From: an uncultured bacterium
Lineage (GTDB): Bacteria; Planctomycetota; J058
Length of the DNA: 48,112 nt
Assembly: GCA_937911525.1 (NCBI GenBank)
Contig: CALDQK010000927.1
Span: 1 to 48,112, forward strand
Reading direction: 5' to 3'
Part shown: one piece after another, positions 15,701 to 42,137 of the stretch
Numbering within the stretch: the stretch's first letter is position 1
How the letters are laid out: each line of letters opens with the position of its first letter
The notes under the pieces: model-generated
Databases searched by the model: none
Told to the model about the DNA's origin: nothing
Seen by the model: the letters and a program-made list of their open reading frames with translations, nothing else
Made by a program: the position numbers and the translations under genes

Positions 15701-16245
15701 TCGGGGCCGGAGCCGAGGTCACGGGCTCCAAGCTGCGGGCCTACTACCGGGCAGGGGAAACGGGCAACGTCTTCGAGATCGCGCGGACCGATCCAGCTAG
15801 CGGGACCGTTGTCGAGCGCCTCGTCCATGTCGACGTTAGGGATGGCGCCTTGGTCGCGGGACGGGGGATCGCGAGCTACGGGGGAATCCACGTTTGGGGG
15901 CAGAAGGGGCTGACCTTCCACCCGCCGCGCGGGGGGGGTGAGCTGTCCTACACGCTGGAAGGGACCCCAGAAGGCGTGCTGCGTTTGACCAGCGCGAACC
16001 CCAAGTCCCCTGTGACCCTTGGCGTCGATGGTCACCTCTCGGTCGCGGGTGACGCCTCGGTCTCAGGGAAGCTCTACGTGGCGGGCTCGATCGACCCGAC
16101 GGATCTTCAACTCACACCACAGGAGACGAACCCTGTCCCCCCCTCAAGCTATGGGATCTGGGTGTCTGATGGGACTACGCCAGGTACAAAGGAGGGCGGC
16201 CTCTACTACCAACGTGCTGGCTTCAGGATCCGTCTCGATGCGTAG
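12706..16245 (+). CDS. giant fibre-like protein (1179 aa) with Pro/Gly repeats and Arg/Glu-rich helix
   Basis: The in-frame GTG at 12706 overlaps the upstream TGA (GTGA); the ORF-track start at 12520 lies inside the previous gene. The protein contains an acidic/Lys tract, 35-36-aa tandem repeats and a ~124-aa R/E segment. Its C-terminal end (LSVAGDASVSGKLYVAGSIDPTDLQLTP) is reminiscent of phage tail-fibre tips. Confidence 0.65.
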   Translation: MRNLPPRDGITATDLWVPVDATGEDFYALGQRFGTQVGVLSELHDETGHPYVLVEGTGFFDPRSLRYHRLQRPTPTGIEDNRLAIQILNDYEAEYQDVRPGDAPFAQPEFFTAQNRTTREADTKGRVALPSSHRRIIDSEDDRYALALTCRSVPLQAAEIEIAPDEPDAAAPDAVPEGMAFNDAGTRSGTHGSVTQTAPSVSVGGVTFFGGAAVSAARNALAQGGSVADAARAASAAARGLPPPPLQDAGTRERGSQTGPTETREPPPEPDRNQGGSVPLLNHPKGYVWSEADRIGLLGTLVAPEGAGGSYFAGREGTPIGPLPIRHDAQFTMGPELVGRVVFVSNDASEVPEGAGKPIKGELWADRGRANVDTELGLETLQWRPVIRVDADLPPSMPPPQPPPWTWLPPPREEEDEDDEEEDKKKKIPPKKPGGKPSGSGKKPPVGEGPGVSSGGGILVAGGGFTPIPVPPRRETSNGRTGDGDLEPIENPRSQTRDYEGPGEPCPNATAGVLVHAPGTSVATGSTSVGGLPVIPVPGGYIEFFGHPGLTPVPGGLVVGGEQSHRLTLGLPTPPRRGVGVDPAPGRVPRGRRVPGDDPGRVPLGLPTPPGAGIGVEPGPDDGVPRGRRVPGDDPGRIPLGLPGRRGPGLGFEPPLGGDRGIPRGYEERLQRRRRRERARRAREERDRREQERIDELEDLEERARDAGRERLANRVGRARERVERRRQRREDRRRRREEYKERKRREREERRRRREERRAERRRKREERRQRRNRERQARRDRGEERRRPPQGGYMIDVSSPDAMEHSLGRLTADERAKYEEDKRKEEEARQRYQATFGDWNTANTPLGFLGAPGGPRSLEGWAHLATFQVRAMQRVVNGAFGGPSYLAANIGVVHRNRPGNPPAGSRIGAHWTPLPREQRLKLCRGQAPLEVVSVLEAPAGTEVEACGGGVLEVVREHRGEGLVTDPRPLILLENARSHSPELIDADMISDVQRRFYVGAGAEVTGSKLRAYYRAGETGNVFEIARTDPASGTVVERLVHVDVRDGALVAGRGIASYGGIHVWGQKGLTFHPPRGGGELSYTLEGTPEGVLRLTSANPKSPVTLGVDGHLSVAGDASVSGKLYVAGSIDPTDLQLTPQETNPVPPSSYGIWVSDGTTPGTKEGGLYYQRAGFRIRLDA
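14410..14703 (+). repeat. in-frame tandem repeat, about 2.8 copies of 105-108 nt (LGLPTPP..G.GV.P.P..VPRGRRVPGDDPGR.P)
   Basis: Copy 1 is 14410-14514, copy 2 is 14515-14622 and a partial copy 3 starts at 14623. The peptide units are LGLPTPPRRGVGVDPAPGRVPRGRRVPGDDPGRVP, LGLPTPPGAGIGVEPGPDDGVPRGRRVPGDDPGRIP and LGLPGRRGPGLGFEPPLGGDRGIPRGY. Confidence 0.8.
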
Positions 16246-16413
16246 CTGTCGCCAGCGGCAGCCCGGAGCCGCTCAGCGCTCTCTCTACCTCTACCAGGCC
16301 CGAGGGCGGCACCCTGACGGAGCCGGCTCCCTCGCCGGGAAGGAAGGGTAGCCCGCGAATGACGCGGTCCTGCCCGGCCAGAGTTGCGACCCTCGCCAAT
16401 CGACTGAGCGGGG

Positions 16414-16902
16414 CTATTCAACGAGCTCCACAGACTTCGCCTTGAGCTTCCCGCCCTCGATCTGCCCGTCGATCTTGGCGCGGAGTCCGCTCTTGCCGCA
16501 AAAGGGCATGGAGCCGAGCCCGTGGTCGGTGATCTCGACGAAGGCGCCGTCGATCTTGGCGTACTCGCCGCAGTGACCCACCGCAGGGATCGAGCAGCCG
16601 CACGCGACGTCGTAGACCTTGGCGCTTGCGGCCTTCGGCTGTGCAGGCGCCGCGGCCCCGTCCTCGGACACCGGGACCAGGTCCATCTTGCAGGTGGGGC
16701 AGGTCCCTGGCTTCGGCTGCTTGACCTGCGGGTGCATCGAACACGTCCACTGAGACGCAGCGGCTCCTCCCTCGGCGGCCGGCGAGGGGTCGGAAGCCGG
16801 GGCCTCGTTCGCCGGAGCGGGCTCTGCTTGCTGGGTGGGCTCGCTCGGGCAGCCAGCGCAGAGCAAGGCCGTGGCGAGGAGGACGGGGTAGAAGCGGTTC
16901 AT
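16414..16902 (-). CDS. periplasmic metal-binding lipoprotein with heavy-metal-binding zinc-ribbon motif
   Basis: The true start is ATG 16902 (MNRFYPVLLATALLCAGC) with GGAG 7 nt upstream; the ORF-track N-terminal extension overlaps cusA. The protein contains WTCSMHPQVKQPKPGTCPTCKMDLVPV and a Cys/His-rich C-terminal domain (CGCSIPAVGHCGEY...FCG). Confidence 0.7.
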   Translation of the reverse strand: MNRFYPVLLATALLCAGCPSEPTQQAEPAPANEAPASDPSPAAEGGAAASQWTCSMHPQVKQPKPGTCPTCKMDLVPVSEDGAAAPAQPKAASAKVYDVACGCSIPAVGHCGEYAKIDGAFVEITDHGLGSMPFCGKSGLRAKIDGQIEGGKLKAKSVELVE

Positions 16903-16925: not shown

Positions 16926-21034
<4,109 letters not shown>

Positions 21035-21038
<4 letters not shown>

Positions 21039-23899
21039 TTCCCACCTCCCTTCTCGTCGCGCTCACGAACGGGGACGAGGTTCATGCCGCAGATCGGGCA
21101 CTTCCCGGGTCCTGGCTGACGAATCTGGGGGTGCATGGAGCAGGTCCAGCCTCCCGTCGGCTCCGCGGGGCGCGAGCTGGGCTGCGGCGTGGGCGCGGCG
21201 TCAGCCGGAGGAGCTGCTGCCGGGTCGCGTCCGGAGGCCGGGATCGACTCGACCTGCCGTCCGCAGCGCAACATGCGCGACCCGAAGTAGGGGTTGAGGA
21301 CCTGCTCTCCCTCCTGCAGCCAATCTGCGCCGCGGTTCCCGAAGGCCATGGGGCAGTGGAAGCGCCGCACCGAGCGTTGTGGAAGGTGCCCATAGCGGGA
21401 GACGACGGCGGTCAGCTTCGTCGAGAGGGGCTCGAACGCCTGGCGCTGGGCCTCCAATCCGGCTGCCTGTTCGAGGTTTTTCACATCGGCGAGCAATCCT
21501 GGGAGACGAGTCTGACGCCAAACGTCGCGGTCGGCCGAGGGGAGCTGAGCGGGGTCGACGCCCTCGAGCGCTCGGCGCAGCTCCGGAGCGCGGGTGGCTC
21601 CCGTCGCCTTGTCCTCGGCCAGCTCCCGCTGGAGGTTGAAGTAGGCCGCCAGCGCTCCGTCCAGCTGGCGGCGGAACGTGTCGAGACTGGCGCCAGAGTC
21701 CTGCCCGGGCGTCGGCGTCGGGCTTGGGGCTGGCGACTCGGGCTGAGCAGGGGGCTGACCGTGGCCCTCATGTCCCGGCGGTGTGGCGTGGTCATGGCCT
21801 TCATGACCTGTCGGTGCCGGCGTGGCCGGCTGCTGCGGGCGCTGTGGCTCCTCCCCCCGGGCCGGGAAGGTGGAGCGGACCTCACCGCAGCGGAGCATGC
21901 TGGCCCCGAAGAACGGGTTCTGAACCTCCTCGCCCCGCTGCAGCCAGCTCGCACCCTTGTTGTCGCGGGCCATGGGGCAGAACGCCTCGCGATAGACCCC
22001 TTGGGCGTGCCCGAATTGGCGCTCCACGTCGAGCGCGGCCTCAGCCAGGTCGGCGAAGCTCGCGCGCGCCGCATCAATGCTCTCCGCCGTGGAAATCGCC
22101 TCCGCCGCGTCGCGCAGGCGCTTCGCTTCGCGCATCCAGGCCATGTGCCCGTCGCCGCTGACGAGCTTCATGTCGACGCCTTGGATCGCCGTCGCGAGGA
22201 TGCTGGCCGCGGTCTTGGCCGCGGCCAGGTCGTCCCCCGCCAGGGCCTCCTGCACGGCCAGGTAGCCCTCATAGACGGGGCGCAGCGCCGCCAGGAACGC
22301 TGGCGTCGCTTCGTGGCGCTGGGTTTCTCGGCGGCCCGCCGGCGGGAGCATCATGCTCGGCCGCGCCTCGATCTGAAGTGCGCTGTCGATCTTGAAGGCC
22401 CCCTTCGTCACGACTAGGTCGCCCTCCGAGAGCCCCGAGCGGACGATGTAGAAGTCGCCGGCCCGAGGGCCGAGGACGATCTCCTGGCCGCGAAACGAGG
22501 GCTGATCGCCTGGCTGCTTCACGTAGACCAACGAACGGACCCCGGTCCAGAGCACCGCCGACGCCGGCACGACGAGCGGAGGCTTGGCTTGTGGGTCGCC
22601 CGTCCGGTGCAGGGACTCCGCGCGGACGAGGGGCATGCCGCACTGGTCGCACTGGCCCTGGGCGTCCTTGATCACGTCCCAGTGCATGGGGCAGATCCAC
22701 TTGCCGACCAAGCTCGGATCCAGGGTCTGCCCCTCGGCCTGGAGGGGAGCCTTCAACACCGCGCGGACGAACATGCCGGGCTTCAGCCGCCCGTCGGCGT
22801 TGGTCACGTTCAAGCGGACCTTCACCGTGCGGGTGTTGCCGGTCAGGACCGGGTCCACGAACACCACCCGCCCTTCGAAGGGGACGCCGGGATAGGACTC
22901 GGTCTCGAACTGGACCGTCTGACCGTACCGGACCCAGGGCAGGTCCGACTCGTAGGCGTCTAGCTGGACCCACACCTGGCTCAGGTCCGCGATCGTGTAG
23001 ACGCGCTCGCCCGTGTTGACGTAGTCGCCGGTGTTCTTGTTCTTGTGGACGACGATCCCGCCGATCGGCGCGCGGATCGTGATGTGGTCCGAGGTCCGAC
23101 CGCTGCGCTCGATCTCCTCGATCTGATCTCGCCCCAGCCCCCACAGCCGCAGCTTCTCGCGGGCGGATGCCACGGTCTGGTCGGCCGTCTCGAGCATCAA
23201 GCGGCTGCTACTCGCCTGCAGCTTCTTGCGGGCCTCGATCGCCTGCAGCAGCTCCTCCTGGGCGCTCAGGAGCTGCGGGCTGTAGATCTCGACCAGGTGG
23301 TCGTCCTTGCGGACGAGGGTGCCTGTGTAGTCCACGTACATGCGGTCGAGCCGCCCGGGGATCCAGGCCGTGATGTAGTTGAGCCGGGTCTCGTCGTAGT
23401 CGACCTTGCCCACCATGCGGACGTCGCGGGCGACGTCGCGTCGCCGGACGGGCTCAGTCTCGATCTCGGCCAACGTCACCGCGTTTGGCTGCAGCTTCAG
23501 CTCACGGGGGCCCGAGTCGTCACCGCCCTCGCCGACGGGGATCAAGTCCATGCCGCAGATGGGGCACTTCCCAGGCTTCGGGCTACGGATCTGGGGGTGC
23601 ATGGAGCACGTCCACACCGTGGGCTTGTCGTCCGCCGCGGTCTGGCCCTCGGCCGGGGGAGGCGAGGCCTCGGGCGAGGTCAGTCGCCCCAGGAGCAAGC
23701 CGACGAGGAGAAAGACCACCGCGCCCGCGACCCAGCGGGCTCGCTGCCAGCGCGGGGCTTCCGGTTCTGCGGGAGTCGGCTGCGGCGTCGGAGCCTTCGG
23801 CTCCTCCGCGGAGGCGGTCGGCTTGGTGTCGTCCGCCGCGTCGGCCGGCGTGGTGTCGTCTGCCGAGTCGGTCGGCTTGGGTTCGTCGTGGTTCGTCAT
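21035..23899 (-). CDS. cusB: CusB-like periplasmic adaptor fused to three metal-binding zinc-ribbon motifs and two DUF3347-like modules (954 aa)
   Basis: The MFP core is recognisable (hairpin, lipoyl and beta-barrel segments, e.g. IRAPIGGIVV, VWVQLDAYESDL). Three zinc-ribbon motifs are present: WTCSMHPQIRSPKPGKCPICGMDLIPV, WICPMHWDVIKDAQGQCDQCGMPLV and WTCSMHPQIRQPGPGKCPICGMNLVPV. Two FxCPM..W(L)Q..NP(F/Y)FG..MLRCG modules and a His-rich linker (GHEGHDHATPPGHEGHG) are also present. Confidence 0.85.
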
Positions 23900-23907
23900 G
23901 AAGACTC

Positions 23908-25284
23908 CTAGCGCTCGGACCGCGGCTTGAGGTCGGTGCCGGTGAGCATTTCCAGCTCGGCGAACGAGCGGACGCGATCGGCGAGGGCCCGCTCGCGGGA
24001 CAGGTGGAACTCGAGGAGGACGCGCTCGGCGTCCAGGACATCCAGGAAGTCGCCAGCGCCCGCCTCATAGGCGGCGGATGTGGCTTTCAGGGACTGCTCG
24101 GCCTTGGGCACGAGCGAGTCCCGGTAGAGGCGGAGCTTTCGCTCCGCATCTCGGTAGTCGAACAGGGCGCGGGCCGCGGACGCTTCGAGCGAGTTCTCGG
24201 CGTCCGCACGGTCGAGCTCGGCGGCTCGGAGACGCGCCCGCGCCTCCGAGACCGAGGATTCGTAGCGGCCGAACCAGATCGGCAAGCTGATCCCGAACTT
24301 GGCGATCATGGCGTCGTCGCCGCTCCCGGAGGGACGAACGCCCATGGCGTTGCGCACGGCCGGGCCGGTCTCGATGTACTCGAAGCCGAACATGAAGTCG
24401 GGCAGGTAGCTCTGCCACGCCAAGTCGACGCCGCGCTCGCGAGCCGAGATCTTGCGGTTGAGCTCCGCGAGGAGCGGGCTGTGCCGCTCGATCAGGGCCA
24501 GGACTTCACCGTCGGAGACCGCCAGCGACGTGGCGGGGACCGACGACGGCCAGGGGATCTCGAAGTTGGCGGGGACGTCCAGGAGCGAGCGCAGCCGGGC
24601 CACGTGGGGCTTGCGGGCGTCGTTGAGCGTGGCCAGGCGATCTTCCAACCGCCCGATCTCGACCTGCGCCTTGATCACGTCCCGGTGGGCCGCCTGCGCG
24701 CCAGCGCGGAACCGGGTCTGGGCGACGGACTCCCAGTGCCGGACCAAGGTCAGGGTCTCGTCCGTGACGGCGCGCTCGCGGGCCAGGTAGTAGTAGTCGG
24801 CGTAGGCCCGCGCGACCTGATACACGATCCGCAGGCGGACCGCGTCGGTCCTGGCCCGCGTCGCCTCGGACTCCTCCAGCGCCATGGCGCTCCGCTCGGC
24901 GAGCTTGCCGGGCCAGGGCACCATTTGGGAGACGCCGAACCGGTGTCGCTGCGGGCCGACGCGGGTCTCGACCTGCTCGATGAAGCCGCCGTAGGTCAGC
25001 TCCGGGTCGGGCAGCGAACGCGCCTGCGGCACCCGCTCGAGGTCTGCGCGCCAGCGCTGGGACTGGGCCTGCAGAGCCGGGTTGCGGCGCAGCGCGAGGG
25101 CGACGTAGTCCGTCAGGGTGCTGGCCGACGTCAGCGGCGCGACCTCCTCGTTCATGGGGCGAAAGCTGGCGTCGAGCTCGCTCCAATCGGTCCAGGCCGT
25201 ACGCTCCCGGTCGTAGGCGCAGCCGGCCAGGGAGAGGGACAAGACGGTCAGCGCGCCTGTTAGCGCGCACACGGATCGCGACAC
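23908..25284 (-). CDS. cusC: outer-membrane efflux factor lipoprotein (TolC/CusC family)
   Basis: GTG start with an AGGAGA RBS. The lipobox is LSLAGC. The protein is 458 aa with two OEP-type helical repeats, and its stop lies 8 nt upstream of the adaptor gene's start. Confidence 0.85.
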   Translation of the reverse strand: MSRSVCALTGALTVLSLSLAGCAYDRERTAWTDWSELDASFRPMNEEVAPLTSASTLTDYVALALRRNPALQAQSQRWRADLERVPQARSLPDPELTYGGFIEQVETRVGPQRHRFGVSQMVPWPGKLAERSAMALEESEATRARTDAVRLRIVYQVARAYADYYYLARERAVTDETLTLVRHWESVAQTRFRAGAQAAHRDVIKAQVEIGRLEDRLATLNDARKPHVARLRSLLDVPANFEIPWPSSVPATSLAVSDGEVLALIERHSPLLAELNRKISARERGVDLAWQSYLPDFMFGFEYIETGPAVRNAMGVRPSGSGDDAMIAKFGISLPIWFGRYESSVSEARARLRAAELDRADAENSLEASAARALFDYRDAERKLRLYRDSLVPKAEQSLKATSAAYEAGAGDFLDVLDAERVLLEFHLSRERALADRVRSFAELEMLTGTDLKPRSER

Positions 25285-25398
25285 GGTGCGTTCTCCTGCA
25301 CGTGGAAGGACGGGCGAGACGTCTGCTCGAGCTCGGGACGGACGTCGTCCTGAGCGCGCAGACGCCGGGGGCGCCGGGCGCTGCCCGGCGTCAACCGC

Positions 25399-25824
25399 CT
25401 AGAGCAGGAAGACGCGGTGAAGTAGGTGCAGCCTGTGTTTGCCAGGCGGGGGTCGCGGCCAACACGCAGAAGTCTGCAATCGGCGGTCTTGGGGGCTCGG
25501 GACGGCGGGAGGAGCCTCGAAAAGGACGAGCGCGAGCTGCCCGCAGTACGGCTCGCCGGTCGCAGGCAGCTTGCTGCCCGCAGCGTCCCCGAGGTCGAGC
25601 TTCGGGCAGTCGGGGCAGTGGTCGGGGGACTGGGCGCGCTCGTTCCGGTCGTCGTCTGCCTGCATGGCGCAGCAACCGTGAGCGCGCGGCTGAGGAGCCT
25701 CCGCCTGGCTGCAGAACAGGCCGTGATCTCCGCCCTGGCAGGCGCAGAGGTCGAGCTGCCCGATTCCTCCCGGAACGAGCAGGGTGACGATCAGGAGGAC
25801 GCTCAGGAGTCGCGCGCCGATCAC
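25399..25824 (-). CDS. secreted Cys/His-rich small protein (putative)
   Basis: The GTG start overlaps the kinase stop (GTGA). A signal-peptide-like N-terminus (LLSVLLIVTLLVPGG) is followed by CAC, FC, HGCCAM and HCPDCP motifs. GC3 is high over most of the ORF. The C-terminal third is low-complexity, so the true end is uncertain. Confidence 0.45.
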   Translation of the reverse strand: MIGARLLSVLLIVTLLVPGGIGQLDLCACQGGDHGLFCSQAEAPQPRAHGCCAMQADDDRNERAQSPDHCPDCPKLDLGDAAGSKLPATGEPYCGQLALVLFEAPPAVPSPQDRRLQTSACWPRPPPGKHRLHLLHRVFLL

Positions 25825-27677
25825 GAGGTGGCCTCGCGATCGGCCGTCACTTGGGCGCGGGCCAGGCGAGACTCGTCCCGCGCGCGAGCGTACTGGCGCT
25901 GGCGCGCGCGGATGCGGATCTCCGAGATCGCGCTCACGGCGACGCGCGGGTAGCTCGCGAAGCGGGGCTCGTAGTCGAGCACAGCGTGGTCGGCGCGCGG
26001 CGCCGGTTCGGCAGGCGTGGGGTCCTGGGGAGGCTCTACCGCGGGGGCGGACTCGGCCTCAGCGGCAGGCCCCTCGTCAGGGACGAGCTCCCGGAGTCGC
26101 GCGCGCCACCACATGTGGGCCCGCTGCTGGGTCCACGGCTGCGCGACCGCGATCCGCGCCAAGCGCTCGTGCAGGTCATCCACCGTCTGCGGCCGCAGGC
26201 GCGGGGTCTTGGCCAGGCAGTTGATGATCAGCTCTTCCAGTTCGGGAGGGATCGCCTGCCGTGTCTTCGCGCTCGGGATCGGCGGTGGAGCATGGACGTG
26301 GTCGGCGATGATCCCGGCCGCGGTGGACTGCTCGAACACCAGGTGCCCGGTCAGCAGCCAGTAGGCGACGCAGCCGATCGCGTAGACGTCGGCGCGGGAG
26401 TCGACCTCCGCGGGGCTCTTGGCCAGCTCGGGGGCCATGAAGGCAGGCGTCCCCACGACGTAGTCCGCGTCGCTCACGCGGGGGTCCTGCTCGGCGGGCT
26501 TCATGCGCCGCACGAGGCCGAAGTCGAGGACCTTGACGAAGTCGACCTGGTTGCCGACGTGGCAAGCCATGAGGTTCGAGGGCTTGATGTCGCGGTGGAC
26601 GAGCCCCGCGGCGTGCGCCTCGGACAGCGACTCGCACACCTGCCGCAGGAGGTAGATCGCGCGGGCAGGGGAGAGCGGGCCGAAGCGATCGACCAGCTCC
26701 TCCAGGTCGATCCCTTCGAGGAGCTCCATGGCGTAGTAGAGGGTGCCGTCGTCGGTGACCCCGTAGTCGTAGAGGCTGACGGTGTGCGGTGAGGTCAGGG
26801 CCGCGATCGTCTGGGCCTCGCGCTCGAAGCGCGCCAGGACCTCGCTCCGATCCTGGAGCGGCGGCGTCCCGTGGGTGCCGGTCGTCGGCAGGTGGACGAG
26901 CTTGACGGCCGCGGGCCGTGCCAACAGGGCGTGCTCCGCGCGCCACACCTCGCCCATGCCGCCGCGCCCCAGGAGCTCGACGAGGCGGTAGCTGCCGAGC
27001 TGGCGAACGGTGTCCCGGGCGGTCGTGGCGGCCGAGCCGAGGTCGAACACGAGCCACGCCGGGACCACCGCGAGGCCAGCGCAGACGTAGTAGGGGAGGA
27101 ACGTCTCGGCCAACACGGGGAGCCGCGGCAGGGCCTGGCCTTCCGCGAGGCTCCACACGAAGAAGACCGCGGGCGCCGTGGTCGCGCAGAGGGTCGAGAC
27201 GACGAGGCTGCGCAGCGGCCGGCTGGGAATCAGCAGGGGGAAGAGGAGGATCCACACGGCCAGCCACGACAGCTTGACGCCCACGCCCTGGAGGAGCATG
27301 TCGCCGGAGAAGGCGCAGACCGAGAGCACGAGCGCGCCGAGGAGCTGGTAGGCGAGCCCGACCTTGAGGGTCGTCCGCGCCGGCAGCAGCCGGCGCCAGG
27401 CGACGACCGCCATGCCCAGCGAGAGCAAGAACAAGACGGTCTGGGCGGCCAGGAAGTGGGTGAGGTGGTGGGGGGCCTCCCACCCGAGGGGTCCGTAGAG
27501 CACGAACGCGCTCAGGACGAGCGCGGCGACGACGCCGGCGAAGACGGCGCTCACCAGCGCCAGCCGGCGGTTCGACTGCTCGAGGAAGCGGCTGTCGAGG
27601 AGCGCGGACGTCGCAGAGCCCGGAGACGACTTAGCGTCCCTGTCTTCGACTCGCTCGCAGACGACCCCGACTCTCAT
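25821..27677 (-). CDS. membrane Ser/Thr protein kinase with N-terminal multi-TM domain
   Basis: About 6-7 hydrophobic helices span aa 40-230. A Hanks-type kinase follows, with GRGGMGEVW, AAVKL, HRDIKPSNLM, DFGLV and GTPAFMAPE. The C-terminal tail is Pro/Glu-rich. Confidence 0.9.
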   Translation of the reverse strand: MRVGVVCERVEDRDAKSSPGSATSALLDSRFLEQSNRRLALVSAVFAGVVAALVLSAFVLYGPLGWEAPHHLTHFLAAQTVLFLLSLGMAVVAWRRLLPARTTLKVGLAYQLLGALVLSVCAFSGDMLLQGVGVKLSWLAVWILLFPLLIPSRPLRSLVVSTLCATTAPAVFFVWSLAEGQALPRLPVLAETFLPYYVCAGLAVVPAWLVFDLGSAATTARDTVRQLGSYRLVELLGRGGMGEVWRAEHALLARPAAVKLVHLPTTGTHGTPPLQDRSEVLARFEREAQTIAALTSPHTVSLYDYGVTDDGTLYYAMELLEGIDLEELVDRFGPLSPARAIYLLRQVCESLSEAHAAGLVHRDIKPSNLMACHVGNQVDFVKVLDFGLVRRMKPAEQDPRVSDADYVVGTPAFMAPELAKSPAEVDSRADVYAIGCVAYWLLTGHLVFEQSTAAGIIADHVHAPPPIPSAKTRQAIPPELEELIINCLAKTPRLRPQTVDDLHERLARIAVAQPWTQQRAHMWWRARLRELVPDEGPAAEAESAPAVEPPQDPTPAEPAPRADHAVLDYEPRFASYPRVAVSAISEIRIRARQRQYARARDESRLARAQVTADREATS

Positions 27678-27689
27678 GGCCGACCGACG

Positions 27690-27705
27690 TGCAACTCATG
27701 TGCCG
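27690..27705 (-). promoter_or_regulatory. sigma54 (-24/-12) promoter for the kinase-cus operon
   Basis: The minus strand reads cGGCAC-atgag-TTGCA with exact GG-N10-GC spacing. The -12 element ends 12 nt upstream of the kinase ATG (27677), and there is no SD between them. Confidence 0.65.
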
Positions 27706-27786: not shown

Positions 27787-27808
27787 GGCATTTCAGATCT
27801 GAAATGCC
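27787..27808. promoter_or_regulatory. perfect 22-bp palindrome GGCATTTCAGATCTGAAATGCC, candidate enhancer-binding-protein site
   Basis: Read directly. It is centred between divergent -24/-12 elements, about 80-95 bp from each. The same core recurs at 40514-40527, with degenerate copies near 40471, 44105 and 44254. Confidence 0.6.
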
Positions 27809-27939: not shown

Positions 27940-28671
27940 ATGGCTGAGCGAGTGATCGAAGCACGCCCCGAGGGGGAGGAGCGCTGCACCGTCCTGCTGG
28001 TCGCCCTGCTGGGGCTGTTCCTCCTATGGCCGCTCTTGGGCTTGGGTCACGTAGGCTCCGCGCTGCTCGACCTGTTCGTGTCCGCGGCGCTGTTGCTGAC
28101 CGTCCGCGCCCTGCGAGGCCCAGGGCGCGCCGTGTTCCGCGCTGCCCTCGCGCTGTCCGTCCTGGCGATCGTCACGGCTGCAGGGAGCCACCTGCTCGGG
28201 GTGGCTTCGCTCCTGCCGCTGGGCCATGTGCTGGGGCTGCTGTTCTTCCTGCTCACGGGCGGCACCCTGCTCAAGCGCGTCCTGGAGCCGGGCCCCGTCA
28301 CGGCCAACCGCTTGGAGGCCGCGATCTGCGGCTACTTGCTCATCGGGTTGGGGTGGGCGCTCGTGTTCTCCCTCATGGAGCACTTCCAGCCCGGGGCCTT
28401 TCACGACCCAGCCGGAGGATCCCCGGAGAGCCACGCCGTGCTGGCGGGCTTCCCGCACTTGATCTACTACAGCTTCACGACCCTCACGACGCTGGGGTTC
28501 GGCGACGTGGTCCCGCGGAGCCCGTTCGCCAGGTCCCTCAGCACCCTGGAGGCGGTGGTGGGTCAGCTCTACCTCGCGCTGCTGGTCGCCAGGCTGGTGG
28601 GCTTGCACATCGCCCGGATCGCGGCCAGCGAGCAGACCGAGTGCCCGGCCCACCGCGAACCTGCTCAGTGA
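27940..28671 (+). CDS. K+-channel-like pore protein (Ion_trans_2 type)
   Basis: ATG at 27940 with GGAGG 5 nt upstream. Multiple TM helices are present, with a selectivity-filter-like TTLGFGD after a pore helix (IYYSFTTLTTLGFGDVVP). Confidence 0.75.
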   Translation: MAERVIEARPEGEERCTVLLVALLGLFLLWPLLGLGHVGSALLDLFVSAALLLTVRALRGPGRAVFRAALALSVLAIVTAAGSHLLGVASLLPLGHVLGLLFFLLTGGTLLKRVLEPGPVTANRLEAAICGYLLIGLGWALVFSLMEHFQPGAFHDPAGGSPESHAVLAGFPHLIYYSFTTLTTLGFGDVVPRSPFARSLSTLEAVVGQLYLALLVARLVGLHIARIAASEQTECPAHREPAQ

Positions 28672-29159
28672 CAGGGCTCGCCGCCGTCCGAGCTGCTGAG
28701 CGTGTCGACGAACTTGAGCCCCAGGCGCTCCAGCTCGGTCCGCGGGTCTTCTTGCTTGGCCTTGCCCCTGCCCGACCCGCTCGGGACGTCTCGCTCGGTC
28801 AGGGCCCGGAGCATGTCGAAGGAGCTCAGGATCCCGTGGACCTTCCCGTCCCGCACGATCACGAGGTGCCGGACGTGGTACTTGGCCATGAAGCGGGCCA
28901 CGAGCACCACGTCGACGGTCTCGGGCACGGTGTAGACCCGCCGCTGCATGACCTCCTTCACCGGGTGCCGGGCCTCGTCGCCCTGAATGTCCACGAAGTC
29001 CGCGCAGGTCACGATCCCGGCGAGGTAGTCCCAGTCGTCGACCACGGGGAGGGCGTGAAAGTCCTTGCCGCCCAGGATGCGGCGCACGCGCGCGATCGGA
29101 TCGGTCTCTTTGACTTTCACGACTTCGGTCGTCATGAGGTCACTGACTTTCATTGGCAT
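28665..29159 (-). CDS. CBS-domain pair protein
   Basis: Two CBS-type repeats are present (VSDLMTTEVVKV...ALPVVDD...GIVT; VKEVMQRRVYTV...HLVIVRDGKVHGILSSFDML). This is the last gene of the long minus-strand operon. Confidence 0.8.
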   Translation of the reverse strand: MPMKVSDLMTTEVVKVKETDPIARVRRILGGKDFHALPVVDDWDYLAGIVTCADFVDIQGDEARHPVKEVMQRRVYTVPETVDVVLVARFMAKYHVRHLVIVRDGKVHGILSSFDMLRALTERDVPSGSGRGKAKQEDPRTELERLGLKFVDTLSSSDGGEPCH

Positions 29160-30075
29160 TCCTCTCGGGGGCTCCGCCCTCCTCGGCCAGCACCTCGCTC
29201 ACCGCCGCGGCGAGCGCAGGCGCCAGCCCAATCTCATTGGTCGAATGCTCGATCGTGTCGCAAGTCACGATCTGCGCCGGGCCCGCGCCCTCCAGGGCCT
29301 GGAGGCCGTCGCTGGCGAAGACGGCGTGGATCCCCACGCACACCGTGGGCGGCATTCCGGCGCGGGCCAAGTGGCGCAGCGTTTCGACCATGGTCCGCGC
29401 GGTGGAGATGATGTCGTCGACCAGCACCGGGGTGTGGTCGCGGTAGCGGTCCACCTCAGGCACCGAGACCTCAACGTCCTTGTCCCCCCGCCGGACCTTC
29501 TCCAGCACGATGTGTGGGGCGCTGGCGAGCTCGGCGACCGACGAGACCCACTGCTCGCTCTCGCTGTCGGGGCCGACGAGCACGGGGCGCTCGACGTGCT
29601 CCCGGATCCAGTCGGCGACGGCCGGGGCTGCGTGGACGACGCGCGTCGGGATCGTGTAGCCGGACTCGGCGAGGGTCGCGTGGCGGTGCAGGTGGGGGTC
29701 GACCGTCACGAGCCAGTCGACCACCCGCGAGAGGAAGCGGCCGAAGTAGAGGCTCGTGATCCCTTCGCCGCTGTGGAAGCGCTTGTCCTGGCGCATGTAG
29801 GACAGGTAGGGCGCGACCAGGCCGACCCGGCGCGCCCCCAGGTCGCGCGCAGCCTCGGCCAGCATGACGAGGGGGACGACCTTCTCGTCGGGCTCATGCA
29901 GCGTGCACACCAACACGACCTCGCGGTCCCGGACGTCCGTTTCCAGGCGCACGTAGGTCTCGCCGTCCGGGAAGCGGCGCACCTCGGCGCTCCCCAACCC
30001 GCCCTCGAGCGCGGTCGCCAGGTCCGCCGCGAAGGCGTCGTTCCCGGGGAGGGCGAACACCAGCGGGAGGCTCAT
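29140..30075 (-). CDS. ribose-phosphate pyrophosphokinase (PRPP synthetase)-like protein
   Basis: Motifs present are RFPDGETYV, a VLVDDIISTARTM PRPP-binding loop and LVGPDSES. The start overlaps the upstream stop as ATGA and has a GGAGGAAGC RBS. Confidence 0.75.
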   Translation of the reverse strand: MSLPLVFALPGNDAFAADLATALEGGLGSAEVRRFPDGETYVRLETDVRDREVVLVCTLHEPDEKVVPLVMLAEAARDLGARRVGLVAPYLSYMRQDKRFHSGEGITSLYFGRFLSRVVDWLVTVDPHLHRHATLAESGYTIPTRVVHAAPAVADWIREHVERPVLVGPDSESEQWVSSVAELASAPHIVLEKVRRGDKDVEVSVPEVDRYRDHTPVLVDDIISTARTMVETLRHLARAGMPPTVCVGIHAVFASDGLQALEGAGPAQIVTCDTIEHSTNEIGLAPALAAAVSEVLAEEGGAPERNANESQ

Positions 30076-31619
30076 GCTTCCTCCTTGCCGAGCCGGACGA
30101 GGTCAGCCTCGCGCTCGAGGTAGTCGAGCGCATAGCCCAGCTCGCCCTTGGCTTGAGCGTGGAGCGTGAACAGCGGCTGCCCTGCCTCCACCGAGTCGCC
30201 GATGCCCACGTGCAGCTCGAGGCCCGCCGCCGGGTCGGCAGGCGCCCCGGCGAACTTGGCCACGCGCGACAGCCGCCGGTTGTCGAGCTCGAGCACCTGC
30301 CCTGCGCGCGTGGCTTCGACGGTGTGCGTCAACGCGGCGCGCGGGGGCTCACGAAGCCCGCCCTGGGCTTCGCAGATCGCCTGGAACTTGGACCAAGCGG
30401 CCCCGTCCTCCAGGACCCGCCGAGCCACGCGCGGACCTCCGCCCGCGCTGATGTTCGGCGAGAACTCCAGGACGGCGCCGGCGACGTCCAGCGCGCGCTC
30501 ACGCAGGTCGGCGGGGGCGTTCGGGTCGTTCTGGAGCACCGCCAGGACGTCGCGGGCCTCCAGGGCCGGCCCAAACCCCCGCCCGATCGGGCGCGAGCCG
30601 TCGGTGAGGAGCACGCGGACGTCGAGGTCGACCAGGCGACCCACGCCCTCCAGCAGGCGCCCGAGCTGCTGGGCCGTGTCGACGCTGCGGACCTTGGCCT
30701 TGGGCCCGTGGGGAATGTCGATCAGCACGTGGGTGGACCCGGCCGCTGCCTTCTTGGAGAGGACGGAGGCCACGAGCTGGCCGAGGCTGTCGAGGTCGAG
30801 CGCCCGCTCGACCCGGATCAGGATGTCGTCGGCAGGGCTGAGGCGGGAGCTCCCTCCCCACACCAGGCAGCCCCGCTCCCGCTCGACGACCCGGCGCATG
30901 GCGGCCTCGTCGAGGTCGACCGGCGCCAGGGTCTCCATGACGTCGGCGGTGCCGGCGGGCGACGTGATCGCGCGCGACGACGTCTTGGGGATCGTGAGCC
31001 CGCAGGCGGCTGCGACCGCGACGACGATCGGCGTCGTCCGGTTCCCGAGGAGCCCGCCCACGCAGTGTTTGTCGACGACGAGGTCGCTCTGCCACTCCAG
31101 GCGCTGTCCCGTGTCGATCATGGCTTGGGTCAGGGAGACGACCTCGTCGAAGTCCAGGGTGGCGGCGCAGGCCGTGATGAACGCGGACAGGTAAATGTCC
31201 GAGAGGCGACCGGCGACCACGTCCTCGACGACGTGCCGCATGGCCTCGCGCCCGAGGCGCTTGCCGTGGATCTTGCCGCGGATCGCGCCGTGCGACTCCA
31301 CGGCGGGCGCGTGGCGGAGGGTGACCTGGGTGCCCTCGCTGGCGTCGAGGCGACCCCACGCCGCCTCGGAGAGGCCCGCCTCGCCCGGCGCGAGGAGCCC
31401 TCCTGGGGTCGTCTGGTTGACGGTCGCCAGGATCGAGTGCCCGTTGGCGCTCACGAGCACCCGCGAGCGCGCCTGGAAGCCCTCGGCCCGGCAGACATGG
31501 CAGTCGCTGGGCATGTAGATCACGGCCTCCTGGTGGGTGTCGATCCCCAGGCGGCGCAGGGTGAGGGGGTGCTGCCCGTCCCCGTGCGCGTCGCAGCAGG
31601 ATGGTTCCTGGGCGGTCAT
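30072..31619 (-). CDS. thymidine/AMP phosphorylase family protein (long archaeal-DeoA-like form)
   Basis: The true start is ATG 31619 (MTAQEPSCC...), overlapping the MBL stop as ATGA. The protein has DKHCVGGLLGNRTTPIVVAVAAACGL and SSRAITSPAGTADVMETL glycosyl-transferase-family-3 motifs. An extra N-terminal domain brings it to 515 aa. Confidence 0.75.
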   Translation of the reverse strand: MTAQEPSCCDAHGDGQHPLTLRRLGIDTHQEAVIYMPSDCHVCRAEGFQARSRVLVSANGHSILATVNQTTPGGLLAPGEAGLSEAAWGRLDASEGTQVTLRHAPAVESHGAIRGKIHGKRLGREAMRHVVEDVVAGRLSDIYLSAFITACAATLDFDEVVSLTQAMIDTGQRLEWQSDLVVDKHCVGGLLGNRTTPIVVAVAAACGLTIPKTSSRAITSPAGTADVMETLAPVDLDEAAMRRVVERERGCLVWGGSSRLSPADDILIRVERALDLDSLGQLVASVLSKKAAAGSTHVLIDIPHGPKAKVRSVDTAQQLGRLLEGVGRLVDLDVRVLLTDGSRPIGRGFGPALEARDVLAVLQNDPNAPADLRERALDVAGAVLEFSPNISAGGGPRVARRVLEDGAAWSKFQAICEAQGGLREPPRAALTHTVEATRAGQVLELDNRRLSRVAKFAGAPADPAAGLELHVGIGDSVEAGQPLFTLHAQAKGELGYALDYLEREADLVRLGKEEA

Positions 31620-33004
31620 GACGTGCCTCCTCTCCGGGGGAGTTCCACCCGGTCGCCGTGCTCGGGGACGGTGCAGGGCCACCCCAGCTCGTCTGCGATG
31701 CGCTTTCGCAGCCCCTCGGAGCCGGTCGGCTCGCCGTGGGTGATGAACGTCCGCAGGGGCGGGCGCTCGAACCCGCCCAGCCAGGCCAAGATCTCGCGGT
31801 AGTCGGCGTGTGCAGAGAGCCCGTCGATGCAGGCGACCTCTGCGCGGATCTTCACCTGCCCGCCGTGGACCTTCACGGACTTCGCGCCGCCCAGGAGTTG
31901 CGCTCCACGGGTGCCGCCGGCCTGGAAGCCAATGAACAGGATCGTCGAGTTGCGATCCGGCGCGATGTGCTTGAGGTGGTGGAGCACGCGACCGCCAGTG
32001 AGCATGCCGCTCGCCGAGAGGACGATCCGGGGGTCCTTTCGGAGGTTGAGCTCCTTCGACTCGTCCACGCTCCGCACGTAGCGAGCGACGTTGCAGGTCC
32101 GCTTGCAGGTCGGCCCGTCGAGCCGGTGCTCTCGCATGTGCTTGCAGTAGATCTCCATGGCCGAGACCGCCATGGGGCTGTCCAGGAACACAGGCACGTC
32201 CGGGATCCGCTCCTCCGCCATGAGCTTCTGCAGCAGGTAGAGCAGGGCGTGGGCTCGCCCGACGGCGAAGGTGGGAATGAGCACGGCGCCTCCACGCTCG
32301 CACGTCTCCGCGACGACTTCAGCCAGGCGCTCCTCGACGTCGGTCTCCTCATGGAGCCGGTCGCCGTAAGTCGACTCGACCACCAGGTAGTCCGGGCGCC
32401 CGCCCGCGGCGGGCGGATACATGACCGGGTCGTGTGGGCGGCCGAGGTCACCGGTGAACAGGATCGAGCGCTCCGGGCCCGTGAAGCGGACCAGGGCCGA
32501 CCCGAGGATGTGACCGGCCGGCGCGAGGCTGAAGCTGAGACCCTGCTCGAGCTGGACGGCCTCGTCGAAGGGGACGGGCTCGAACTGCTCCAGCGCCACC
32601 TCCGCGTCCTCCTGGGTGTAGAGGGGCAAGGCGGGCTTGTGCTTCGAGAAACCCTTCTTGTTCGCGTAGCGGGCGTCGGCCTCCTGAATGTGGCCGGAGT
32701 CCCGCAGGAGCAGGCCGCACAGGTCCTGGGTGGCGTGAGAGGCGTGGATCGGCCCCTTGAATCCGTTCTTGACCAGCAAGGGCAGGTAGCCGCTGTGGTC
32801 GAGGTGGGCGTGGGTGAGGACGACGGCGTCGATCGTCTTGGGATCGACGGGCAGGGGCGCCCAGTTGCGGAGGCGCAGCTCCTTCCAGCCCTGGAACAAG
32901 CCGCAGTCGACCAGGACGCGCTTGCCGGACCACTTCAGCAGGTACTTCGACCCGGTAACCGTCCCCGTGCCGCCGAGAAATGTGAGCGTGGGGTTAGCAG
33001 TCAT
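31616..33004 (-). CDS. MBL-fold beta-CASP hydrolase (RNA-metabolising metallo-beta-lactamase family)
   Basis: Motifs present are HAHLDHSG (HxHxDH), a beta-CASP-type middle region and a C-terminal GLSAHAD. The RBS is GGAGGAG. Confidence 0.8.
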   Translation of the reverse strand: MTANPTLTFLGGTGTVTGSKYLLKWSGKRVLVDCGLFQGWKELRLRNWAPLPVDPKTIDAVVLTHAHLDHSGYLPLLVKNGFKGPIHASHATQDLCGLLLRDSGHIQEADARYANKKGFSKHKPALPLYTQEDAEVALEQFEPVPFDEAVQLEQGLSFSLAPAGHILGSALVRFTGPERSILFTGDLGRPHDPVMYPPAAGGRPDYLVVESTYGDRLHEETDVEERLAEVVAETCERGGAVLIPTFAVGRAHALLYLLQKLMAEERIPDVPVFLDSPMAVSAMEIYCKHMREHRLDGPTCKRTCNVARYVRSVDESKELNLRKDPRIVLSASGMLTGGRVLHHLKHIAPDRNSTILFIGFQAGGTRGAQLLGGAKSVKVHGGQVKIRAEVACIDGLSAHADYREILAWLGGFERPPLRTFITHGEPTGSEGLRKRIADELGWPCTVPEHGDRVELPRRGGTS

Positions 33005-40470: not shown

Positions 40471-40527
40471 TTTCAGGTCTGCAAGTTCCCCGTCCTCTGG
40501 GAAGCAGGTCCTGTTTCAGATCTGAAA
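40471..40527. promoter_or_regulatory. two copies of the TTTCAGATCTGAAA motif (40471-40484 degenerate, 40514-40527 perfect)
   Basis: TTTCAGGTCTGCAA matches 12 of 14 positions and TTTCAGATCTGAAA matches 14 of 14. The latter extends to GTTTCAGATCTGAAATGCC, matching the 27787 palindrome. Both lie between divergent -24/-12 elements. Confidence 0.55.
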
Positions 40528-40567
40528 TGCCACCCCCACACTCCCTTGTTAGAAGGTCGAGGTGCGA

Positions 40568-40582
40568 GGCACTCCAATTGCA
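40568..40582 (+). promoter_or_regulatory. sigma54 (-24/-12) promoter for the two-component operon
   Basis: GGCAC-tccaa-TTGCA is a consensus match with GG-N10-GC spacing. The -12 box ends 16 nt upstream of the sensor kinase ATG (40599). Confidence 0.7.
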
Positions 40583-40598: not shown

Positions 40599-42137
40599 AT
40601 GACTGAGGACACGACGAACGGGGCGAGAGGTTGGCGGCTGGGTCTGCGCCACCGAATCCTCGTGCTCGTCTTCCTGGTCCCAGCCTCGGTCCTGGTGGTC
40701 GGCCTCCCGCTCCTGTTCGTCTCCCAGCACCGCAGGGCAGAGGCGGAGTTCAAGGACCGGCTTCGGTCTGAGGCAGACGTGCTGGCGCTGGCATTGGCGG
40801 ATCCTTGCGAGCGGGAGTGCCTCCATGAAGTGGAGCCTCCTGTTCAGCAGCTGCTGCAGAACGAGCCTGCGCTCATCTCCGTCGAGATCTTCGACCCCAA
40901 GAGCGGGACTCTGCTGGGCGCGTGGGGAGCGACGGGGCCAAAGCCAAGCGCGGCACAGCTCGGCAGTCCTGCGGGCAAGGTCTGGATCGAGGAGGAAGGA
41001 GAGGCGAACAGTGCGCTCCACGCTTCGGGGCACGTGTTCGCTGCCACCACGCCCCTCGCGACGAAGCGCTGGAAGGGCGAGGAACACCCCGTCCTGCGCC
41101 TGCGCGGCAACTCCCGCGCCTACAACGAGCGCGTGGTCCACATGCTGCTCCTGGCGTTGATACCGGGTGGCGTAGCAGGGGTCGGCGGGCTGCTCTTGGC
41201 GTTCTGGCTCAACCGGCGGCTGCGGAGCGCCGTGGCTTCGCTGCAGGATGCGACAGCGCGCATTGCGCGAGGAGAACTCACCGAGCGTGTGAACGTCCGC
41301 ACGGGAGACGAACTCGAGGACCTCGGTGAGGCCGTCAATCGGATGGCAACGGAGTTGGCGGAGCAGCGCGCCCGCTTAGACCGGAACGCGGAGGTCCTGG
41401 AAGAGAAGCTCAGCGCGCGCAGCCTCGAGCTCGAGAAGGCCAGGACCATTGCGGTCAACCAAGAGCGGATCGCGGCGATGGGAGTCCTTGCCGCGGGCGT
41501 CGCTCACGAGATCGGAAACCCACTCACCGCGATCTCTGCTGTCGTTCAGGGCATGCGCCGCCGAGAAGAGGGCGGCGGCAAGGTCGAGGTCCTGGCCGAG
41601 AACCTGGACCGAATTCGGCAGATCGTCCGCAGCTTGGTCGACTACGCCCGGCCCCCAGCCAACGACTGGCGTTCCTTGTCACTGAACGACCTGCTGCGCC
41701 GGACCTTGTCGCTGGTGAGCATGGACCCGCGCGCCAAGGAGGTCGACATGTCGACCGAGCTCGACCCGGAACTCCCCCGCGTCCGCTCCGTCGAGGACAA
41801 GGTCCAGCAGGTGTTCCTCAACCTGCTCCTGAACGCTTTGGACGCGCTGCCCGAGGGCAAGGGGCGGGTTCAGGTGACGAGCCGGAGCGAAGGCGATGAG
41901 GTCTGTGTACTCGTCGACGACAGCGGCCCCGGCGTGCCAGCCGAGCTGAAGGAGCGCATCTTCGAGGCCTTCTTCACGACCCGCGTGGAGCACGGCGGCA
42001 CGGGGCTGGGGCTCGCCGTGAGCGCGTCCCTGGCCGACGAGCTGGGCGGGCGCCTGGAGGTCGGAGACAGCCCGCTTGGCGGGGCACGGTTCACGCTGTG
42101 TCTACCCGTCAGCGCTTCGGAGGAGCGTGCCGTATGA
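40599..42137 (+). CDS. sensor histidine kinase (periplasmic domain-HAMP-HisKA-HATPase)
   Basis: The start was chosen at ATG 40599 (MTEDTTNG...). Two TM helices flank a ~150-aa periplasmic domain containing CERECLHE. Motifs are a HAMP region, an H-box VAHEIGNPL, an N-box LNLLLNALDA and a G-box GTGLGL. Confidence 0.85.
   Translation: MTEDTTNGARGWRLGLRHRILVLVFLVPASVLVVGLPLLFVSQHRRAEAEFKDRLRSEADVLALALADPCERECLHEVEPPVQQLLQNEPALISVEIFDPKSGTLLGAWGATGPKPSAAQLGSPAGKVWIEEEGEANSALHASGHVFAATTPLATKRWKGEEHPVLRLRGNSRAYNERVVHMLLLALIPGGVAGVGGLLLAFWLNRRLRSAVASLQDATARIARGELTERVNVRTGDELEDLGEAVNRMATELAEQRARLDRNAEVLEEKLSARSLELEKARTIAVNQERIAAMGVLAAGVAHEIGNPLTAISAVVQGMRRREEGGGKVEVLAENLDRIRQIVRSLVDYARPPANDWRSLSLNDLLRRTLSLVSMDPRAKEVDMSTELDPELPRVRSVEDKVQQVFLNLLLNALDALPEGKGRVQVTSRSEGDEVCVLVDDSGPGVPAELKERIFEAFFTTRVEHGGTGLGLAVSASLADELGGRLEVGDSPLGGARFTLCLPVSASEERAV

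Follow-up and report, generated by a model that had tools for sequence, protein, structure and literature searches.

The stretch of DNA considered here, called the window below, covers 48,112 nt of the genome of an uncultured bacterium of the Planctomycetota (lineage J058; assembly GCA_937911525.1, contig CALDQK010000927.1) and has a GC content of ~70%. On its minus strand, a gene for a 618-aa Hanks-type Ser/Thr kinase with transmembrane (TM) helices is followed by a small open reading frame (ORF) for a 141-aa exported protein rich in cysteine, and then by cusC, cusB, cusA and the gene of an HMBD lipoprotein (Table 1). The ORFs and domain matches bear out an earlier reading of this DNA (referred to as the original prediction), in which all these genes were placed on the same strand behind the kinase gene and the GTG start codon of the small ORF was found to overlap the TGA stop codon of the kinase gene as GTGA (cacctcGTGAtc). 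Between the small ORF and cusC lies a gap of 114 nt (25285-25398). GC content by codon position is of the coding type in all genes of the operon, the small ORF included (0.76/0.51/0.82 for the latter). With cusA, cusB and cusC in one operon, the locus qualifies as a heavy-metal RND efflux system of the CusCBA type.

As far as the sequence can show, the cus transcription unit opens with the kinase gene and the small ORF as its first two cistrons. The sole sigma-54 promoter and its enhancer lie upstream of the kinase gene, and no consensus promoter or U-tract terminator that would separate the kinase gene from the pump genes was found from the kinase start to cusC. Scans for sigma-70 promoter and U-tract terminator consensus sequences gave nothing relevant, although such scans say little at 70% GC. 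In the comparisons below, L-numbers denote compared genome places and G-numbers compared genomes; all are uncultured metagenome-assembled genomes (MAGs), and many of the loci are related to one another.

Table 1. Positions of the features discussed (window coordinates unless a place is named; UAS, upstream activating sequence)
Feature	Position	Strand	Remarks
Kinase gene	25821-27677	-	618 aa; six TM helices, then Hanks kinase
Kinase residues 1-229	26991-27677	-	cytoplasmic N-tail and uncharacterised six-helix membrane domain; periplasm-facing H72/H75 and C121/D126/M127, mainly in the metal-island clade
Kinase residues 230-500	26178-26990	-	Hanks-type Ser/Thr kinase catalytic domain; PF00069; PknB-like fold matches
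Kinase C-terminal region	25821-26177	-	conserved PWTxxRAxxWW, disordered Pro/Ala linker, terminal basic helix
Small exported protein gene	25399-25824	-	141 aa, seven Cys; GTG start
Two GC-rich hairpins, from the small-ORF stop onward	25331-25398	-	candidate CutF/CruR-type stem-loop or attenuator
cusC-type outer-membrane factor (lipoprotein)	23908-25284	-	PF02321, 167 bits
CusB-type adaptor	21035-23899	-	954 aa; three HMBD zinc-ribbon motifs and two DUF3347 modules; PF16576, 245 bits
CusA/CzcA-type heavy-metal RND pump	16926-21038	-	1370 aa; TIGR00914, 754.8 bits (cut-off 701)
HMBD lipoprotein	16414-16902	-	last gene of the unit
Sigma-54 -24/-12 element	27690-27705	-	CGGCACatgagTTGCA; distance to the kinase start 13 nt (from C of GC to A of ATG)
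Perfect 20-nt palindrome	27788-27807		GCATTTCAGATCTGAAATGC; presumed enhancer (UAS) for an NtrC-type activator
K-channel-like gene	27940-28671	+	Ion_trans_2, TLGFGD filter; divergent from the kinase gene, same enhancer
Palindrome copy, histidine kinase operon	40511-40530
Sigma-54 element, histidine kinase operon	40567-40582
HAMP/HisKA histidine kinase and NtrC-type sigma-54 activator	40599-43483	+
Sigma-54 element, L020	9973-9988
Sigma-54 element, L021	9973-9988
Sigma-54 elements, L053	1842-1857, 3781-3796
Sigma-54 element, L054	752-767
Sigma-54 element, L077	3983-3998

The kinase, its family and its genomic contexts

The match of the kinase to Pkinase (PF00069) spans residues 230-499 and scores 142 bits against a cut-off of 31.7. 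K259, E287, HRD at 361-363, N368, DFG at 385-387, T410 and APE at 415-417 are invariant in 12 homologues. Because every catalytic residue is thus invariant, the kinase is predicted to be catalytically active. Ahead of this domain, a block of six to seven TM helices had been proposed. The order of the two parts stands, and the number can be narrowed to six, since two AlphaFold runs place helices at about residues 40-61, 72-94, 100-124, 138-149, 154-179 and 186-212 and give no seventh. The model of the TM domain alone reaches a pLDDT (predicted local distance difference test) of 76.6, and the full-length model is poor (53.6). Lys and Arg are concentrated in the N-tail and in the loops that follow TM2, TM4 and TM6. 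As this distribution follows the positive-inside rule, the modelled topology is N-in/C-in with three short periplasmic loops.

Well-known membrane-bound Hanks kinases are PknB and Stk1, and the window kinase resembles them in having a cytoplasmic kinase domain, 30-35% identical to theirs in the catalytic part, with all catalytic and activation-loop residues present. However, its arrangement is reversed, with the six-helix membrane domain at the N terminus and the catalytic domain towards the C terminus. It has no PASTA or other extracytoplasmic domain, only the short periplasmic loops, and unlike the genes of PknB and Stk1 its gene sits in a metal-efflux operon. The model for PASTA kinases of the PknB/Stk1 type (NF033483) scores 241 bits, through the kinase part only, against a cut-off of 450, which places the protein outside that group.

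The membrane domain itself could be assigned to no described family. Pfam searches with nine TM-domain sequences returned no consistent family, a single DUF2231 match of 15.6 bits with the window protein being noise. Foldseek found no structural relative of the TM-only model in the PDB (best E value 0.6, TM-score 0.35), and the full-length model gave kinase-domain matches only. In an exhaustive search of 1.84 billion representative proteins, the TM domain matched 300 clusters at E<=0.001, none of them annotated; nearly all are represented by proteins of 500-600 aa that carry the match at their N terminus. All ten family members that were scanned either carry Pkinase directly after the six-TM domain or are fragmentary proteins. 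The family occurs in 14 of the 18 genomes of the window's GTDB class, with up to six paralogues per genome, and a search of the loci with the TM-domain alignment pointed to three genome places. The window kinase is therefore a member of a larger unannotated family with a fixed architecture of six TM helices followed by a kinase. A survey of kinases in Planctomycetota reports some with many TM helices, and describes neither this family nor a copper link (PMC11032199). The copper-linked six-TM Hanks kinase with an undescribed membrane domain is new.

The clade to which the window kinase belongs is linked to copper and other metal islands. It had been suggested that co-occurrence of this kinase type with cus genes be sought in other genomes, and it was found there: orthologues with 44-100% identity precede a small ORF and cusC(BA). 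The order of kinase, small ORF and cusCBA is shared by the window, G009 (L009/L072) and L055; at L054 (~63-68% identity) the kinase gene is followed by the small ORF, cusC and cusB, and at L077 (P0022; 44% identity) by the small ORF and cusC. At other places the metal genes are of different kinds. For example, the kinase gene at L053 is followed by a multicopper oxidase gene and preceded by CBS and K-channel genes, as in the window. At L020 it stands beside the gene of a CBS protein, with genes for a P1B-ATPase, a TRASH/YHS protein, a histidine kinase/NtrC pair, a K-channel and an outer-membrane efflux protein (OEP) near by, and at L021/L065 it is divergent from MerT-HMA and Czc-type pump genes. 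At L018/19 it heads a same-strand run of beta-CASP, thymidine phosphorylase, Prs, CBS, small ORF and cusCBA, with V-ATPase, YHS and DUF2231 genes upstream. Two kinase paralogues with ~50% identity (L056 and L057) have P1B-ATPase or CusA-like genes within a few kb. Places of the kinase with at least 44% identity in the TM domain are thus metal contexts. Around ~14 paralogues of at most 46% identity, none of 22 metal-island query proteins was found within +/-9 kb, and the neighbours of the P0023 paralogue (39% identity) are other signalling genes.

The metal-island members also carry residues of their own. The motif H-L-x-H-F at the outer end of TM2 (H72/H75) and the motif C-A-F-x-G-D/E-M/L at the outer end of TM3 (C121/D126/M127) are found only in these members, with the exception that the L077 kinase has kept the second motif alone. 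Taken with the metal context, the clade motifs are a lead towards metal sensing by the kinase, although not proof of it.

The small protein, its pump and the CutF-like leaders

The CxC (C27, C29), HGCC (H49-C52) and HCPDCP (H69-P74) motifs that had been noticed in the small protein are all present. In its family, C27, C29, H34, C38, C51, C52, C70 and C73 are invariant, and homologues at 30-48% identity also keep D25, G35 and P74, which gives the pattern D-L-C-x-C-x4-H-G-x2-C...C-C...C-x2-C-P followed by a C-terminal PPPGKHRLHLLHRVFLL tail. This conserved tail reads PP-x-(K/R)(R/L)(R/H)HLxLxVLR(L/C/F)-stop, and the middle of the protein is of low complexity, Pro-rich and variable in length. A putative signal peptide is recognized by inspection from R5 and a hydrophobic core of 12 residues, and in more than 20 homologues G-G or A-G-G stands 2-4 residues before the invariant DLCxC. 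In a collection of 5.8 billion proteins, the homologues (128-161 aa) form 14 clusters, all unnamed and found only in MAGs labelled Planctomycetota.

It had been asked of the small ORF that it be conserved and translated. It heads Cus-type operons at ~13 further places and, besides its coding signal, shows a dN/dS of ~0.43 against a copy 86% identical. The places at which it lies upstream of cusC/cusB are the window, L009, L010-L016, L018/19, L054, L055, L075, L076 and L077. At nine of them (L010-L016, L075 and L076) no six-TM-kinase gene lies directly upstream, and other regulators stand alongside the operon. Thus, the constant partner of the small protein is the pump, not the kinase. At L010, the region ~10020-10090 upstream of the small ORF at 9972 (-) holds a dyad, TTGACAGG...CCTGTCAA, and a divergent helix-turn-helix gene, with no kinase; other loci have different upstream regulators. 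The module of small protein and pump therefore seems to swap its transcriptional regulators between lineages.

A model for the small protein is offered by CutF of Rhodobacter capsulatus (Ozturk et al., mBio 2023, PMC9973294), which is small, is exported through Sec, carries a Cys motif and ends in a basic stretch rich in Pro. Binding of Cu to nascent CutF delays the ribosome, a downstream stem-loop opens and the next gene is translated (PMC9973294). The "CutF-like" group, which includes CusD, SilD, CopL, CruR and CzcI, is defined by features, and the commonest downstream neighbours of its genes are OEP, CusB and CusA genes (PMC9973294). Like these proteins, the window protein is shorter than 150 aa and has a Cys/His metal motif, a Pro-rich basic C-terminal tail and, to judge by inspection, a putative signal peptide. 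Its gene also has a copper gene downstream on the same strand (cusC after 114 nt; the published filter is <1000 nt) and an intergenic stem-loop. It differs from them in having seven Cys (CxC, CC and CxxC) instead of one CxxxC, and in that its gene is itself preceded by a kinase cistron. The small protein has no Pfam match. Because the hidden Markov model (HMM) of DUF2946 does not detect it, it is classed as CutF-like by its features, not as a member of DUF2946. In a six-frame search of the whole genome, this HMM gave weak matches elsewhere and none at the small ORF. Conversely, an HMM of the small-protein family found no second member in the genome, nor did it find a weak DUF2946-like ORF (17.5 bits) at G000:C403:24200-24520 (L080). 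The latter ORF has a signal peptide, CC and CGDC and ends L-R-L-R-C-stop, with a hairpin and the gene of a lipoprotein downstream. This ORF probably encodes another CutF-like leader, unrelated to the first.

The intergenic region of the window supplies a candidate for the stem-loop. Its 126-nt fold has a free energy of -63 kcal/mol (z -2.4), and the first 70 nt alone reach -45 kcal/mol (z -4.1). A hairpin of unrelated sequence is found at the same position in 12 of 13 loci (mean z -1.7). The window hairpin, which has no U-tract, could be an attenuator ahead of cusC.

The operon as a whole resembles CusCFBA of Escherichia coli and cusDCBAF/silDCBA of Cupriavidus metallidurans in that a small exported protein is encoded together with the three components of a heavy-metal RND pump. 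CusD and SilD are the first-encoded proteins of their operons, as the small protein is ahead of cusC in the window. Unlike these operons, the window operon shows no CusF-family match, has a 954-aa adaptor with HMBD and DUF3347 and a pump of 1370 aa, and includes the extra HMBD lipoprotein and the kinase.

Sigma-54 control of the unit

By pattern match alone, the element CGGCACatgagTTGCA before the kinase gene is not above chance. The orthologues at L018, L020, L021, L053, L054 and L077, however, have a GG-N10-GC element 12-13 nt upstream of the codon for their conserved N-terminal Met (at L018 and L054 this is an in-frame Met, not the annotated start). Because the position is conserved at seven places, the window among them, it is credible that the element is genuine. 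Since it lies only 12-13 nt before the start, the kinase transcript would be leaderless or nearly so, with a leader of at most 1-2 nt. Such transcripts are unusual for promoters of the sigma-54 class. Elements only 11-17 nt before a start codon were seen for the kinase at these seven places, for the multicopper oxidase at L053 and for the histidine kinase of the window.

The palindrome GCATTTCAGATCTGAAATGC lies 83 nt upstream of the -24 element. The window holds one exact copy and three copies with three mismatches, where shuffled sequences predict 0. It is presumed to act as an enhancer common to the divergent promoters of the kinase and the K-channel-like gene. From the kinase start to cusC there is neither a sigma-54 element nor a palindrome, and therefore cusCBA, if it belongs to the regulon, would be read through the kinase gene. 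On the other side of the enhancer, an ORF at 28026-29411 (+) was considered as a divergent regulator and rejected as an off-frame artefact, the true gene being the K-channel. The grouping of CBS, channel and kinase genes recurs at L053 and partly at L020.

The island also encodes a HAMP/HisKA histidine kinase and an NtrC-type activator, in an operon with its own sigma-54 element and palindrome copy (Table 1), and rpoN is present in the genome (205.6 bits). All the sequence features of a sigma-54 promoter, namely GG-N10-GC, upstream enhancer, activator and rpoN, are thus found. The pair is the likely transcriptional controller of the kinase-cus promoter. The original prediction had contrasted the eukaryotic-like kinase with the two-component or MerR-type regulators that are usual for metal efflux operons. 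The lack of a classical regulator that this implies does not hold, for the histidine kinase and the NtrC-type activator lie at 40.6-43.5 kb of the same island, and the Hanks kinase therefore comes on top of classical regulation, not in its stead. In CorSR of Myxococcus xanthus and ZraSR of E. coli (PMC3707914), similarly, a histidine kinase and an NtrC-type activator are combined with a palindromic enhancer and -24/-12 promoters before copper or metal genes, and the regulator operon is autoregulated. Unlike these systems, the regulon of the window includes a Hanks-type kinase as the first cistron of the pump operon, and its promoters are close enough to the start codons for nearly leaderless transcripts.

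Readings of the operon

The reading preferred here, with a probability of about 0.6, is that two independent modules, a CutF-like leader with its pump and a recruited kinase, are joined in one copper/silver stress operon driven by sigma-54. Copper or silver stress would activate the HAMP histidine kinase and the NtrC-type regulator of the island. To judge from the motifs, the regulator would then bind the palindrome and fire the divergent sigma-54 promoters, one for the K-channel and the other for the kinase, the leader, cusCBA and the lipoprotein. In this lineage the small protein is the standard first gene product of Cus-type operons, and it would be a sequence-divergent analogue of the CutF, CusD and SilD leaders. 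By analogy with CutF and CruR, it would be exported during synthesis, and its Cys/His cluster would bind Cu(I) or Ag(I) in the periplasm. Its conserved 17-residue Pro-rich basic tail may hold the ribosome at the leader stop codon, and the paused ribosome may remodel the hairpin that follows, so that expression of cusCBA is tuned in cis. The kinase clade would have been recruited into copper islands and transcribed nearly leaderless from its conserved sigma-54 promoter. As its gene in this lineage lies between the promoter and leader-cusCBA, the kinase and the pump would be made together. Residing in the same membrane as the pump, the kinase might sense metal, or membrane or thiol stress induced by metal, at the membrane surface and phosphorylate a cytoplasmic target, which would add a second, post-translational layer of control.

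How the kinase would do so can be said only tentatively. Direct sensing of metal or thiol stress is plausible in view of the His, Cys, Asp and Met residues on the periplasmic side, but the idea is speculative. The more specific version, in which the kinase is a membrane-embedded Cu(I)/Ag(I) sensor acting through its TM2/TM3 residues and phosphorylates a pump component or the island regulator, is unlikely. The Thr/Ser-rich cytoplasmic N-tail of the CusB-type adaptor was considered as a kinase substrate and dropped, since such tails occur with and without the kinase.

Several observations weigh against the two-module reading. On the side of the leader, DUF2946 (PF11162; cut-off 23.7 bits) gave no match at E<=10 for eight members of the small-protein family, and PPP lies 15-17 residues from the C-terminal end (PP at 14-19 in homologues), which is borderline for the published filter of 15 residues. 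In several loci the z-score of the hairpin is modest, and DNA rich in GC readily forms such folds. Moreover, the hairpin directly adjoins the stop codon, with no clear overlap with the ribosome-binding site of cusC, and as a possible terminator it might cut cusCBA off from the kinase promoter. On the side of the kinase, no substrate, FHA protein or phosphatase was identified near its gene. The P0022 kinase (L077) keeps the order of kinase, leader and cusC without the His pair, so that the pair is not required for the association. The correlation of motifs and context comes from one clade of related places and thus from few independent events. Finally, the wider six-TM-kinase family is not metal-linked, and the membrane domain may have a general role in anchoring or sensing.

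The three alternatives to the two-module reading each explain part of these data. According to one, that of the original prediction, in which the thiol-rich protein is the periplasmic partner of the kinase, the six-TM domain and the secreted Cys-rich protein form a translationally coupled pair that senses metal or redox state in the periplasm and controls the pump post-translationally. The GTGA overlap in the window, L009 and L055, the small ORF directly after the kinase gene in four lineages at 44-100% identity, and the periplasm-facing Cys and His residues of both proteins would fit such a pair. However, the small protein heads Cus operons at no fewer than nine places (at least nine) without a kinase gene directly upstream, kinase orthologues at L020, L021 and L053 have no small protein, and five genes separate the two at L018. 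Gaps of 150 nt (L054) and 71 nt (L077) between the two genes indicate that the overlap is lineage-specific. Since each gene is also found without the other, this pairing is highly improbable. Another alternative leaves the kinase a passenger, one of many paralogous membrane kinases, carried in a mobile metal island and with a function unrelated to metals. This agrees with the presence of up to six paralogues per genome, mostly without metal neighbours, with the lack of an evident kinase substrate, and with an island ~96% identical between two genera next to DNA of only 73% identity, which suggests mobility. A mere passenger would hardly be expected to keep a metal context at ~10 places with 44-100% identity and with differing neighbours and orientations, to carry the sigma-54 element of the island regulon at fixed spacing at seven places, or to have periplasm-facing His, Cys and Met residues confined to the metal-island clade, and this explanation is accordingly regarded as quite improbable, if somewhat less so than the sensing pair.

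The remaining alternative concerns the small protein, which may be a stable periplasmic chaperone or buffer for Cu(I)/Ag(I), a substitute for CusF or a metallothionein-like protein, that feeds CusB/CusA and docks on the pump or the membrane with its tail, and would then not be a leader acting in cis. A Cu(I)-thiolate cluster could be built from the seven invariant Cys and a His that lie within ~50 residues, the operon proteins scanned include no CusF-family match that could fill this role, and the strict association of the small protein with the pump and the purifying selection on it are as expected for a working periplasmic protein. The shape of the protein argues otherwise: its last 17 residues up to the stop are the most conserved part outside the Cys block, as is typical of arrest peptides, and its middle is of low complexity, Pro-rich and of varying length. 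The hairpin after the stop is conserved in position, and in the periplasm free Cys clusters are easily oxidized. In addition, CutF-like proteins built in this way work in cis, and they cannot be detected as stable proteins (PMC9973294). A chaperone is thus doubtful, although it deserves to be kept in mind as a possibility.

Control of metal efflux in bacteria relies on two-component systems, MerR/ArsR regulators, extracytoplasmic function (ECF) sigma factors and, as found lately, leader peptides of the CutF type. Under the two-module reading, a single operon would contain three layers of control, a sigma-54 two-component switch, a CutF-like leader and a Hanks kinase with a previously unannotated membrane domain, and several lineages share the kinase layer. 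Should the kinase prove metal-responsive, Ser/Thr phosphorylation signalling would reach metal homeostasis and a family of ~300 clusters would gain a function; if it phosphorylates the pump or the regulator, metal efflux would be under a control by Ser/Thr phosphorylation that has not been described in bacteria. The small protein would be an additional unannotated family, undetectable by HMM, among the CutF-like leaders, and its shared C-terminal V-L-R-L ending may help to define the arrest motif.

Two further observations concern the island itself. Its DNA is ~96% identical to that of G009, which GTDB puts in another genus. Identity is only 73% for a phage-like gene abutting the island, and in G009 this gene is found at a distance of 44 kb (regions compared: window 16245-16414, G009:C4:112161-112753 and 156322-158390). 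This points either to a recent transfer of the island or to mis-binning of contig C927 (genome contamination 6.4%). In addition, a cassette of beta-CASP, thymidine-phosphorylase-like, PRPP (phosphoribosyl pyrophosphate)-synthetase-like and CBS genes (window 28665-33004; L018 12180-16521) accompanies the kinase and cus genes in several islands with differing order, and at L018 the kinase gene heads this cassette in place of the cus genes.

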